The notes below the pieces were generated by a model that searched no databases, had not been told where the DNA came from, and was given only the letters and a program-made list of their open reading frames with translations. Shown piece by piece: positions 1-4,127 of a stretch of DNA of 4,127 nt (its first letter is position 1; the number at the start of each line of letters is the position of its first letter). Made by a program: the position numbers and the translations under genes. Source of the stretch: a virus. Lineage: Duplodnaviria > Heunggongvirae > Uroviricota > Caudoviricetes. The DNA lies in IMG/VR virus record IMGVR_UViG_2562617057_000001, positions 1-4,127 of that record; one strand, 5' to 3'.

Positions 1-746
1 ACCGGGATTTTTCCACTGTGCCGCTTCTGTGCGAAGGGGTTGTTCATGCCGTTAACCGATGAGAGATCGATACGACATCGGGTTGTCTGGGAAAGCGCGG
101 CATCAATAAGTAATGGTCGCTGGAGAAAAGCAGCCTCATCCACAAGATAAAGGGTCGTACGGTCACCACGACCGATATTATCGCCAGCCTCACCTTTGAT
201 AACCGCGCCAGTTTCAGGAAACTCAACACGCATATATGGCGCGTGCTTCTTCTCGCTCCACGAACCGCGAAACTCTACAGGTAGTGTTTCCACGAACTTG
301 CGCGCCTTCCAGAACAATGCTTTCGGGTCACCGGTGCTGTCGACGTATTCCTCTTTACGGGAGCCGAAACCGATAACCATTTCTTTGTTGAAGAGACAAA
401 GCGAGCAGGCCAGTCCGATCGCGGTCCAACTGAGCCCCATTTCACGGGATTTATCGGTAATACCATTCTCCCGATTGCTCCAGCGTTCCATAATCCAGTG
501 GATCCACTCCTCCTGCTTAGGGAAGAGTAAAAACGGAATGGTCACCGGCAGGCCATAATCAATATTACGCGGGTCCGTTGTCATGCCCCAGTCGATGATG
601 AACTGAGCCGGATTGGTACGGTAAAACTGTTTTAGTGCAGGCAATATTTCAGGATTCTGGCGAATGCGCTGTAGGCGTTCCATCCGCCATTCAAAAACCA
701 TCTGGTAATCAGGATGTTTAAAATCGAAGGGGAATGGTAACGGCAT
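1..746 (-). CDS. terL: Phage terminase large subunit, N-terminal ATPase portion (partial; 3' end lies beyond window start; codon-aligned 3..746)
   Basis: Not in the ORF track because it has no stop in the window. I translated the minus strand by hand: ATG at 746..744, 248 sense codons with no stop down to position 3 ([20 protein letters not shown]...[11 protein letters not shown]...LYLVDEAAF...[13 protein letters not shown]). Deviant Walker A-like KSREMGLS (approx 432..452) resembles lambda gpA KSARVGYS; Walker B-like LYLVDEAAF at 126..152. Start lies 2 nt after the terS stop (TAA 751..749), the canonical terS-terL coupling. Confidence 0.8.
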
Positions 747-748
747 AC

Positions 749-1303
749 TTAGCCCATCATTTTTCTATACACCTCTGCGGCCTGCTCAGGCGTTAATTTG
801 GTAATTTCTGTTCTGACTGGTCCTCCGTCAGCGCCAGTCACTTCATTTTTGACGTTGTCTTTAAACGCCTGAACAGAAACATGGCGCCCAAGCAACTCAA
901 GGTTTTTAACCTTATCAGGCCATTTGATTTTCTTCAGAAGTGCGGCGCTATCTGCGGATACCATCTCCACGACATCCATTCCTGATAGCGTTGTGCGCCA
1001 TACCTTAGGCCAGTCTTTAATGGGCTTTAGCTCACCGTTTTGCAGGAGAATGTCGAGCACATCCATCTGGTCGATTTCAACCAATCTACGAAGAACATAA
1101 GCGGCATCTATACCTACCTCTTCGTTTCGCTCGGCTTTAAGCTCAGCAATGCGCTTTGCGATATTAGCTTTTATTAGGTTTTTGCATCCTTGTACGGCGG
1201 CAGAATCCTCACTGTAACCCGCCCTGATGGCTGCTTGCGTGGCATTGAGATCTTTCAGGTACTCACGGGCAAACAGCTCTTGTTTGTCGGTGAGCTTTGC
1301 CAT
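749..1303 (-). CDS. terS: Phage terminase small subunit (Terminase_2-type, N-terminal HTH)
   Basis: 184-aa ORF. N-terminus [40 protein letters not shown] matches the conserved terminase small-subunit signature as I recall it (KQExFxxEYlxdxNAtqAaxrAGYS). GGAG Shine-Dalgarno at 1312..1315 (minus strand), 8 nt upstream of ATG 1303. Sits immediately upstream of terL. Confidence 0.85.
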
Positions 1304-1348: not shown

Positions 1349-1351
1349 TCC
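1349..1351. repeat. Target-site duplication (TCC), left flank of IS copy 1
   Basis: TCC immediately 5' of the IS left terminus (TG at 1352) and TCC again immediately 3' of the right terminus (CA ending 2661). A 3-bp duplication is expected for IS3-family elements. Confidence 0.7.
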
Positions 1352-1376
1352 TGAACCGCCCCGGGAATCCTGGAGA
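1352..1376 (+). repeat. IS left inverted repeat (IRL)
   Basis: TGAACCGCCCCGGGAATCCTGGAGA. The reverse complement of 2637..2661 is TGAACCGCCCCGGGTTTCCTGGAGA, giving 23/25 matches (mismatches at positions 15 and 16). Confidence 0.85.
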
Positions 1377-1405
1377 CTAAACTTCCTGAGAAAGAGGTAA
1401 ACAGG

Positions 1406-1732
1406 ATGACTAAAAATACTCGTTTTTCCCCCGAAGTCCGTCAACGGGCAGTCCGTATGGTTCTGGAAAGTCAGGGCGAATATGACTCACAATGGGCGAC
1501 AATTTGTTCCATTGCTCCAAAGATTGGCTGTACGCCGGAGACTCTGCGTGTCTGGGTTCGCCAGCATGAGCGGGATACCGGGGGCGGTGATGGAGGGCTC
1601 ACCACCGCTGAACGTCAGCGTCTGAAAGAGCTGGAGCGTGAAAATCGTGAACTGCGCCGCAGTAACGATATCCTTCGCCAGGCTTCCGCTTATTTTGCGA
1701 AGGCGGAGTTCGACCGCCTCTGGAAAAAATGA
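1406..1732 (+). CDS. IS3-family transposase OrfA (HTH/leucine-zipper DNA-binding subunit)
   Basis: 108-aa ORF. AGAGG Shine-Dalgarno at 1393..1397, 8 nt before the ATG. Ends WKK* on the A6 run. Heptad-like [20 protein letters not shown] is typical of IS3 OrfA. Confidence 0.9.
1724..1732 (+). promoter_or_regulatory. Putative programmed -1 ribosomal frameshift site (A6 run; orfA stop overlaps orfB ATG)
   Basis: AAAAAA at 1724..1729 occupies the last two Lys codons of orfA. TGA stop at 1730..1732 overlaps ATG 1729..1731 of orfB, which is in the -1 frame. IS3-family elements make an OrfAB fusion transposase by -1 slippage on A-rich heptamers (established for IS911, IS3, IS150). Confidence 0.6.
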
Positions 1733-2619
1733 TGCCACTGCTGGATAAGCTGCGTGAGCAGTACGGGGTCGGACCGCTATGCAGCGAACTGCATATTGCC
1801 CCGTCAACGTATTACCACTGTCAGCAACAGCGACATCATCCGGATAAACGCAGTGCCCGTGCGCAGCGCGATGACTGGCTGAAGAAAGAGATACAGCGCG
1901 TATACGATGAAAATCACAAGGTATACGGTGTGCGTAAAGTCTGGCGTCAGTTGTTACGGGAAGGCATCAGAGTGGCCAGATGCACTGTGGCACGTCTCAT
2001 GGCGGTTATGGGACTTGCCGGTGTTCTCCGGGGTAAAAAGGTCCGTACGACCATCAGCCGGAAAGCCGTTGCCGCAGGCGACCGCGTAAACCGTCAGTTC
2101 GTGGCAGAACGACCTGACCAGCTGTGGGTGGCTGATTTTACTTACGTCAGCACATGGCAGGGCTTCGTCTATGTGGCGTTCATCATTGATGTGTTTGCCG
2201 GATACATCGTGGGGTGGCGGGTCTCATCGTCCATGGAAACGACATTCGTGCTGGATGCACTGGAGCAGGCGTTATGGGCCCGTCGACCGTCCGGCACGGT
2301 CCATCACAGTGATAAAGGTTCTCAGTATGTATCGCTGGCCTACACACAGCGGCTTAAGGAAGCCGGATTACTGGCATCAACAGGAAGTACAGGCGACTCG
2401 TATGACAACGCGATGGCGGAGAGCATCAATGGTCTTTACAAAGCGGAGGTAATACACCGTAAGAGCTGGAAAAACCGTGCAGAAGTGGAACTGGCCACAC
2501 TCACGTGGGTGGACTGGTATAACAATCGACGATTGCTGGAAAGGCTGGGCCATACTCCTCCGGCAGAAGCAGAAAAAGCTTATTATGCTTCCATCGGAAA
2601 CGATGATCTGGCAGCCTGA
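1729..2619 (+). CDS. IS3-family transposase OrfB (DDE integrase/rve catalytic domain)
   Basis: 296-aa ORF in the -1 frame relative to orfA. Catalytic triad read from the translation: D136 (WVADFTY), D195 (HHSDKGSQY), E231 ([12 protein letters not shown]), spacing D-59-D-36-E, the classic DD(35)E pattern. Confidence 0.9.
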
Positions 2620-2636
2620 GTTCACAGATAAAACAC

Positions 2637-2661
2637 TCTCCAGGAAACCCGGGGCGGTTCA
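2637..2661 (-). repeat. IS right inverted repeat (IRR)
   Basis: Reverse complement matches IRL at 23/25 positions; the element ends ...GGTTCA at 2661. Confidence 0.85.
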
Positions 2662-2739: not shown

Positions 2740-2952
2740 TCAGGTTGTCATTTTTTCCCTTTTCTGCCTACCTGCCCACTGTTTTGCAATGTACAGGCAG
2801 TCATCGAAAACTCGGCCTTTTCTGCTGGCTTGTGAACAACGGCGGTAATGCTCCACCGCCATGTCAGCGCCAGTCATAGCCGCGTTCTGGTCGTACCCAA
2901 GCTTTATTAACTCGGTTGTTACATTTTTATGTATGAAATCAATCGGAGTCAT
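2740..2952 (-). CDS. Hypothetical small protein (70 aa), translationally coupled to the upstream Rha-like gene
   Basis: ATG 2952..2950 overlaps the TGA stop (2951..2949) of the upstream ORF, an ATGA overlap. Same strand as the phage genes. I recognise no motif. Only a weak Shine-Dalgarno, so expression probably relies on coupling. Confidence 0.5.
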   Translation of the reverse strand: MTPIDFIHKNVTTELIKLGYDQNAAMTGADMAVEHYRRCSQASRKGRVFDDCLYIAKQWAGRQKREKMTT

Positions 2953-3386
2953 GCTGGTTTACCATCAGAGAAATCCCCCATGTCACATAGCTTGAACTGA
3001 ATCAGATCCTTCACAAGCTGCTCAGCCTTTTTAATGGCCTTCTTCTCTTTCTTCCGACGAGTCATGAGAGCGCTACCTGCTTGACCGTGCATTTCAAATG
3101 AGAACTTCTCAGCAGCCGCGACACGGTTTTGCATTTCGCTGATTGCCATATCGGTCAGGCCAGAGAAATCGAGGAGGTTAATGTCCTTCCCGCCCTCAAG
3201 CTCCGTCATGTGGTCATACACCTGCGCCTGAAGCTCATAGCTGTAGCTCATTGCCATGAGGCAAGCTTCACGCTTGGGAAAATTGCAAATATCCCTCTCC
3301 ACAACACCACCTGTTCCGTTGATATAGGTATCAGTTGCAAAAAATTTTGCAGCTGCATCCCCGAGGACCCTGGGTACTTTCTTCAT
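2949..3386 (-). CDS. Putative phage regulatory/antirepressor-like protein (Rha/Bro-N-like region); possibly the 3' remnant of a gene interrupted by IS copy 2
   Basis: 145-aa ORF from the first ATG. The segment PKREACLMAMSYSYELQAQVYDH resembles the conserved core of Rha/Bro-N/KilA-N-type phage regulator domains (recollection, low certainty). The frame stays open for 33 more codons upstream until it hits the IS junction at 3480/3481, and there is no clear Shine-Dalgarno before ATG 3386. Confidence 0.5.
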   Translation of the reverse strand: MKKVPRVLGDAAAKFFATDTYINGTGGVVERDICNFPKREACLMAMSYSYELQAQVYDHMTELEGGKDINLLDFSGLTDMAISEMQNRVAAAEKFSFEMHGQAGSALMTRRKKEKKAIKKAEQLVKDLIQFKLCDMGDFSDGKPA

Positions 3387-3480
3387 GAAACTGCGGTGTT
3401 CGAGTTTGCGATATTTCTTACAGGGGAACGCAAGCCCCTCCGCCTCCGCTTTGGATTTCCGATCAGCATTAATGTAATCC

Positions 3481-3505
3481 TGAACCGCCCCGGGAATCCT
3501 GGAGA
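3481..3505 (+). repeat. IRL of IS copy 2
   Basis: Identical to 1352..1376. Confidence 0.85.
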
Positions 3506-3534
3506 CTAAACTTCCTGAGAAAGAGGTAAACAGG

Positions 3535-3861
3535 ATGACTAAAAATACTCGTTTTTCCCCCGAAGTCCGTCAACGGGCAGTCCGTATGGTTCTGGAAAGT
3601 CAGGGCGAATATGACTCACAATGGGCGACAATTTGTTCCATTGCTCCAAAGATTGGCTGTACGCCGGAGACTCTGCGTGTCTGGGTTCGCCAGCATGAGC
3701 GGGATACCGGGGGCGGTGATGGAGGGCTCACCACCGCTGAACGTCAGCGTCTGAAAGAGCTGGAGCGTGAAAATCGTGAACTGCGCCGCAGTAACGATAT
3801 CCTTCGCCAGGCTTCCGCTTATTTTGCGAAGGCGGAGTTCGACCGCCTCTGGAAAAAATGA
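3535..3861 (+). CDS. IS3-family transposase OrfA (copy 2)
   Basis: 108-aa product identical to the 1406..1732 product. Confidence 0.9.
3853..3861 (+). promoter_or_regulatory. Putative -1 frameshift site (copy 2)
   Basis: Same A6 run and ATGA overlap as copy 1. Confidence 0.6.
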
Positions 3862-4127
3862 TGCCACTGCTGGATAAGCTGCGTGAGCAGTACGGGGTCG
3901 GACCGCTATGCAGCGAACTGCATATTGCCCCGTCAACGTATTACCACTGTCAGCAACAGCGACATCATCCGGATAAACGCAGTGCCCGTGCGCAGCGCGA
4001 TGACTGGCTGAAGAAAGAGATACAGCGCGTATACGATGAAAATCACAAGGTATACGGTGTGCGTAAAGTCTGGCGTCAGTTGTTACGGGAAGGCATCAGA
4101 GTGGCCAGATGCACTGTGGCACGTCTC
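3858..4127 (+). CDS. IS3-family transposase OrfB (copy 2), N-terminal 90 codons only; continues beyond window
   Basis: In frame with ATG 3858 to the last base of the window ([11 protein letters not shown]...TVARL); identical to the copy 1 orfB 5' region. Confidence 0.85.

Follow-up and report, generated by a model that had tools for sequence, protein, structure and literature searches.

The IS629 element and its phage surroundings

The window, meaning the whole stretch of 4,127 nucleotides analysed here, contains a complete insertion sequence of 1310 bp on the plus strand, at positions 1352..2661. Its ends are marked by 25-nt inverted repeats, the left one (TGAACCGCCCCGGGAATCCTGGAGA, 1352..1376) being 92% complementary to the right one (2637..2661). 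The termini read TGAACC...GGTTCA, with the 5'-TG...CA-3' ends expected of the IS3 family, and a target-site duplication in the expected 3-4 bp range is present as TCC at 1349..1351 and again at 2662-2664. In the genome NZ_CP011416.1, the corresponding site is unoccupied (GTTATCCCGTG) and carries a single TCC, where the window reads GTTATCC-[IS]-TCCCGTG. Because this empty site has only one TCC, the element at 1352-2661 is a true insertion accompanied by a 3-bp TCC duplication.

Copies that match the element over its full length at 99.8% identity are present in 4263 of 5426 complete E. coli genomes, and 2-4 bases distinguish the element from the database copies. In the GenBank record LC567824.1, a Stx-phage, the match is of 99.7% over 1310 bp to a feature labelled 'IS3 family IS629', and the genes of the matching element are named 'IS629 transposase OrfA/OrfB'. 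RefSeq describes identical copies as 'IS3 family transposase', with a two-piece CDS, the note 'programmed frameshift' and, at the same place as here, an 'AL1L pseudoknot'. Judged from its sequence, the element at 1352-2661 is IS629 of the IS3 family. It agrees with the reference IS629 (= IS1203-type, from Shigella and E. coli O157:H7) in its 1310 bp, its 25-nt repeats, its 3-bp duplication and the sizes of OrfA (108 aa) and OrfB (296 aa), and nothing notable differs.

The element carries two consecutive open reading frames in the 0/-1 arrangement typical of the IS3 family. The first, orfA (1406..1732, plus strand), encodes 108 aa with a helix-turn-helix domain (HTH_Tnp_1, PF01527, E = 6e-13, 49 bits). 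The orfB frame, shifted by -1 with respect to orfA, is open at 1666..2619 on the same strand and has its first ATG at 1729. From this ATG, OrfB would be a protein of 296 aa containing the DDE integrase core (rve, PF00665, E = 5e-28, 98 bits), as well as HTH_21 and rve_3 matches; a helix-turn-helix in OrfA and a DDE core in OrfB are again what is expected of the family. The two frames overlap over 67 nt (1666-1732), and a -1 shift anywhere inside this overlap would yield a fusion of the same length.

A second IS629 copy in the same orientation (3481..4127, plus strand) is cut by the end of the window and is identical to the copy starting at 1352 over the shared part. The two direct copies, 819 bp apart, bracket two small phage ORFs of the minus strand (2740-2952 and 2949-3386), an organization reminiscent of a composite transposon or of a substrate for IS-mediated deletion; none of the complete E. 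coli RefSeq genomes has both insertions in this arrangement. The same four bases, ATCC, precede both copies (1348-1351 and 3477-3480; gttATCC-TGAACC and gtaATCC-TGAACC, where the hyphen marks the IS end), which may reflect a target preference or a coincidence. The copy at 3481 interrupts a hypothetical phage gene of 198 aa (WP_004996416.1, at 3136-3732 in NZ_CP011416.1, locus L002) roughly 65 nt past its start codon, and the 145-aa ORF at 2949-3386 is the remnant of this interrupted gene, read from an internal ATG. On the other side, the minus strand carries the small terminase (749-1303, PF03592, E = 4e-37) and the start of a large ORF without Pfam match (3-749), called hypothetical, 'TerL protein' or PBSX-family large terminase in related genomes. 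The region 3-1303 (minus) is thus a phage packaging module, and IS629 sits in the packaging region of a prophage. The first copy, inserted 48 nt upstream of where the small terminase begins, may affect expression of the late operon.

Two slippery motifs in the orfA-orfB overlap

Two slippery motifs are found within the 67-nt overlap, a T4 motif at 1693-1696 and an A6 run at 1724..1729, both on the plus strand. The initial annotation had placed a -1 frameshift at the second, and its account of the layout is accurate: in ...ctc tgg aaa aaa TGA tgc..., the A6 run occupies 1724-1729, orfA terminates at the TGA of 1730-1732, and the orfB ATG, in the -1 frame, spans 1729-1731. The tetramer A_AAA (1726-1729) is therefore located directly 5' of UGA. 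A -1 slip at this candidate second site would lead to ...DRLWKK-MMPLLDK... (the hyphen marking here the junction) and to a fusion of 404 aa, in agreement with the ...WKK-MMPLL... product of roughly 400 aa that had been proposed. The T4 motif falls outside the coordinates flagged by the initial annotation.

Two reservations formulated with that proposal are also borne out. The A-run is not a perfect X_XXY_YYZ heptamer: positions 1723-1729 read G_AAA_AAA, so the canonical arrangement, in which the first three bases are identical and both the P- and A-site tRNAs re-pair, is lacking, and only the tetramer A_AAA is canonical. The other reservation concerned the absence of a convincing stem-loop at the usual distance 3' of the A6 run. 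The sole hairpin there, at 1733-1760 and 4 nt 3' of the run, has a folding energy of -8.6 kcal/mol, which is no better than that of shuffled sequences (z = -0.45, 62 of 200 shuffles folding as well). Its centroid is unstructured, and the hairpin shows no conservation within the clade, its counterparts ranging from -3.4 to -14.8 kcal/mol. This hairpin was rejected as a stimulator of the A-run on account of its shuffle-level folding and lack of conservation, and no stimulatory structure was found 4-10 nt 3' of the run, the canonical spacing. Folding of the 80 nt 3' of the A6 run, the check suggested at the outset, gave z = -1.47.

A Shine-Dalgarno-like GGAG occurs at 1705-1708, 17 nt 5' of A_AAA, too distant when compared with the usual optimum of 10-14 nt. 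The window contains four A6 runs for 3.67 expected. Since this count is at the chance level, the run at 1724-1729 is notable solely by its position at the end of orfA. On the other hand, a zero-frame stop codon in the A site can favour slippage of the P-site tRNA.

The T-run is a U_UUU tetramer (1693..1696, plus strand) of the Z_ZZN type, also called the 'T4G' motif, and is read UAU UUU GCG in the zero frame. A -1 slip at this position would give a junction reading ...QASAYF-..., and the resulting fusion would have the same length as that produced at the A-run and differ from it in 11 residues. The tetramer is embedded in a predicted frameshift stimulator: a scan with the Rfam model RF01497, the ALIL (apical loop-internal loop) pseudoknot, matches 1687..1803 of the plus strand over its full length (model positions 1-117 of 117; E = 7e-32), scoring 120.2 bits where the gathering score is 50. 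The model opens with a conserved block, cGCuUAUUUUGC, which corresponds to the T-run. The ALIL pseudoknot brackets the coordinates flagged by the initial annotation. In the second IS629 copy, the equivalent elements are T4 at 3822-3825, A6 at 3853-3858 and ALIL at 3816-3932.

Stem-loop 1 (GGCGG AGUUCGA CCGCC, 1702..1718, plus strand), delineated by the Rfam model and by folding, begins 5 nt 3' of T4. From the end of U_UUU at 1696 to the stem start at 1701/1702 there are 4-5 nt, in keeping with the motif-to-stem distance of 4-10 nt derived from 271 IS3-family members (Sharma et al., 2014; PMC4066793). Its stability is -9.8 kcal/mol if an extra A-U pair is included. Stem-loop 2 (1764..1803, plus strand), which contains an internal loop, is identified by the Rfam model, by folding and by compensatory changes. 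It is separated from stem-loop 1 (ending at 1718) by 45 nt and starts 34 nt 3' of the A-run. In the IS3411-type signal, found in at least 27 further IS elements, stem-loop 2 lies 44-104 nt 3' (2016 Atkins review; PMC5009743). As read from the sequence, the apical loop of stem-loop 1 (GUUCGA, 1708..1713, plus strand) pairs with UCGGAC at 1769-1774 to form the pseudoknot helix. Stem-loop 2 is the sole part of the region whose folding stands out (-18.6 kcal/mol, z = -2.95, 0 of 200 shuffles folding as well). Taken as a whole, the 124-nt region is not more stable than its shuffled versions (z = -0.85), and thermodynamic folding alone was discarded as a way of revealing the signal. The case for the structure is therefore based on the covariance model and on covariation.

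The ALIL pseudoknot was reportedly first described for IS3411, by Mazauric and colleagues in 2008. The IS629 region shares with the RF01497 family the full-length match, the motif 5 nt before stem-loop 1, the second stem-loop 45 nt further and a 6-bp loop-loop helix. It departs from the family consensus in this helix, where U-A and U-G pairs replace C-G and U-A, and is a compensated variant. With IS911 and IS3, which use an A_AAA_AAG heptamer followed by a downstream hairpin or H-type pseudoknot, IS629 has a logic in common: OrfA arises by termination and OrfAB by a low-level -1 shift near the end of orfA. In contrast to these elements, the motif of IS629 is the tetramer U_UUU, its stimulator is a long-range loop-loop pseudoknot instead of a compact hairpin or H-type structure, and a second candidate site occurs at the stop codon. 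The T4G and A4T motifs, a pair that Chen and Hu are said to have described for IS629 in 2006, are both present in the window.

Protein databases were also considered. NCBI lists the exact T-junction fusion of the window on 258 contigs, under the name 'IS3 family transposase'; its junction was set by the annotation pipeline and is consistent with the conserved signal. As for the exact A-junction fusion, it is absent from a collection of about 15 billion proteins, an absence that reflects annotation practice.

Conservation of the signals among relatives

Relatives were collected by a scan of one genome per species, which returned 80 loci with OrfB identities of 53-98%. In each locus, we mapped orfA and its stop codon, the stretch over which the orfB frame is open, and all slippery motifs lying in frame within the overlap; 57 distinct loci have the 0/-1 arrangement. 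A T_TTN motif is present 30-42 nt 5' of the orfA stop in 54 of these 57 relatives, down to 53% OrfB identity, and it is T_TTY in 53 of the 54. Among the three exceptions, two carry the T-motif at a shifted distance. In 11 of the 54, the canonical heptamer T_TTT_TTY (U_UUU_UUY in the RNA) occupies the T-motif position. These full heptamers before stem-loop 1 occur in distant relatives (L035, L037, L039, L054, L055, L056, L059, L063, L069, L076 and L080), which are predicted to use the same signal with a stronger slip motif.

The distribution of the A-run is narrower. An A_AAN motif directly before the orfA stop is found in 16 of the 57 loci: in all 14 having at least 70% OrfB identity, which form the enterobacterial clade, and in 2 of the 43 below that value. 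The ALIL model gave a full match, with 80-121 bits, in each of the 40 diverse loci scanned. These motif counts and ALIL matches indicate that the T-motif and the pseudoknot travel together across the group, the A-run being a lineage-specific addition.

Covariation was examined with 39 segments of 117 nt, forming a gapless alignment. The pairs counted were those of the Rfam nested structure and those of the loop-loop helix, the latter being absent from that nested structure. The six pairs of the loop-loop helix are formed in 97.9% of the cells, and two of them have changed on both sides, with exchanges between G-C, A-U and G-U at one pair and between C-G, U-A and U-G at the other. The complementarity of the apical loop and the internal loop, which defines the ALIL type, has thus been maintained in evolution. 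Helix 1, that of stem-loop 1, is paired in 94.9% of the cells, and helices 3 and 4, belonging to stem-loop 2, show compensatory changes. Overall, the structure is 91% paired, compared with 31-41% after a displacement of the partners by 1-3 columns, and the observed covariation score was reached by 0 of 500 shuffles. Coding in two frames limits the variation of this region, yet coordinated changes at a distance of 60 nt cannot be accounted for in this way.

Within the enterobacterial clade, 15 distinct sequences all carry the A6 run unchanged, although their stop codon varies between TGA, TAA and TAG. This invariance could result from a double-coding constraint rather than from selection for slippage. 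Five close relatives from Phytobacter, Mixta and Kosakonia (L006, L007, L017, L018 and L022) retain both the A6 run and a stop codon but lack an ATG at this place (AAAAAATAGCC). Thus, the A-run is not kept merely as part of the orfB start. In the region of these five equivalent to window positions 1724-1735, GGAAAAAATAG is kept and no ATG overlaps the stop. As far as can be told from their sequences, orfB would be expressible only by frameshifting in these relatives.

Interpretation of the frameshift region

Taken together, the region very probably corresponds to the programmed -1 frameshift region of IS629, with U_UUU and the ALIL pseudoknot as the main, ancestral signal and the A-run as a second site specific to enterobacteria. 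Most ribosomes translating orfA would stop at UGA 1730 and release OrfA (108 aa), whereas a small fraction would slip by -1 and continue in the orfB frame to produce the 404-aa OrfAB transposase. At the T-run, which is proposed as the main -1 site in view of the Rfam block, its conservation and the NCBI junction, tRNA-Phe would re-pair from UUU 1694-1696 to UUU 1693-1695, and UGC would be read next. The ALIL pseudoknot at 1687-1803, predicted by the covariance model, would stimulate this slip through pairing of the apical loop (1708-1713) with the internal loop (1769-1774). At A_AAA 1726-1729, the P-site tRNA-Lys would slip by -1 while the stop codon occupies the A site. The motifs, the reading frames, the match to the structure model, the conservation and the covariation are shown by the sequences; we infer both that ribosomes actually shift in this region and how the use of the T-site compares with that of the A-site.

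The initial annotation was thus right as to the kind of event, a -1 frameshift leading to OrfAB in an IS3-family gene pair, and needs correction as to the place. The A-run is probably not the main frameshift site: U_UUU with the ALIL structure is the conserved signal, the NCBI junction is at the T-run, and the A-run is restricted to the enterobacterial clade and has no stimulator at a suitable spacing. From the sequence comparisons, it would at best be a secondary slip site, the conserved signal being the T-run 30 nt upstream together with the pseudoknot.

Other explanations of the overlap may be envisaged. In one of them, the A6 run 1724-1729 would be the only frameshift site and OrfAB would have the junction ...WKK-MMPLL.... 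In its favour, A_AAA stands directly before the stop codon and does not vary within the enterobacterial clade, tRNA-Lys tends to slip on A-runs, and A4T is reportedly functional in IS629. However, the run is missing in 41 of the 43 relatives below 70% OrfB identity, all of which keep the T-motif and the ALIL structure. Moreover, nothing beyond the shuffle-like hairpin lies 4-10 nt downstream, stem-loop 2 is 34 nt away, and stem-loop 1 would already have been melted by a ribosome positioned at A6. The A-junction protein is also missing from the collection of about 15 billion. In the comparison of tetramers, A_AA.A is among those present in IS3-family overlaps; it nevertheless ranks below U_UU.U when a stimulator is present, and in E. 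coli, where tetramers without stimulator barely rise above background, it is the weakest of the six that respond (PMC4066793). This explanation is considered very unlikely. Reinitiation has also to be weighed. In that case, the A-run would yield no functional fusion, the ATGA overlap would serve only termination-reinitiation, and OrfB (296 aa) would be made separately from ATG 1729. Such an overlap of stop and start is a classic coupling arrangement. Against it, catalysis in the IS3 family requires the OrfAB fusion, and the five relatives that keep the A6 run and the stop without an ATG imply that the run is not conserved for the sake of the orfB start. Free OrfB may nonetheless exist, since IS629 OrfB lowers the transposition frequency according to the statement in PMC5771124 that cites Chen & Hu, and reinitiation could operate as a parallel route beside the frameshift mechanism preferred here. 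As the full account of the overlap, it is most unlikely.

Slippage of the RNA polymerase on the A6 run would produce the fusion without any ribosomal shift, because one A inserted in some of the mRNAs gives exactly the WKK-MMPLL reading. For productive slippage, the E. coli enzyme needs about 8-9 or more A/T, and a run of six is short in this respect; for this reason, transcriptional slippage was rejected. It would also leave the conserved T-motif and pseudoknot unexplained. Thus, although the mechanism is used by some IS elements (PMC5009743), it is hardly credible here.

With programmed frameshifting at U_UUU and the ALIL pseudoknot retained as the preferred explanation, the role of the A-run can be reconsidered, and it is probable that it constitutes a second -1 site. 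Chen and Hu are said to have shown in 2006, with lacZ fusions, that TTTTG (T4G) and AAAAT (A4T) both act as -1 signals in IS629, and that transposition involves cooperation between the two fusion products. If the AAAAT result holds, the WKK-MMPLL product is probably made as a second, minor isoform. Use of the A-site, as well as the question of which isoform is the active transposase, is taken from this reported work. It may further be imagined that A_AAA and the adjacent stop codon form a frameshift site that arose in the enterobacterial IS629/IS3411 lineage alone and was maintained there by selection. Such a site would work without RNA structure, via P-site slippage at the stop codon, and the resulting transposase isoform, with 11 residues changed at the end of the leucine-zipper region of OrfA, would tune transposition. 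This proposal is tentative, and we rate it at somewhat less than an even chance. If it were true, the idea of two products would itself be old, reportedly going back to 2006, and the additions would consist only of the lineage-restricted origin and the structure-independent mechanism.

The frameshift region as such is already known, as the IS629 signal has been described and is annotated routinely by RefSeq. For scans of other sequences, the present case indicates that an ATGA overlap with an A-run does not necessarily designate the programmed site, and that the whole open stretch of the -1 frame needs examining. The case has little bearing outside correct annotation. Placing the shift at the A-run would put the wrong 11 residues in the main transposase product and would miss the pseudoknot that controls its level. 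IS629 is one of the main agents of genome change in E. coli O157:H7 and Shigella, and the frameshift sets the level of its transposase.
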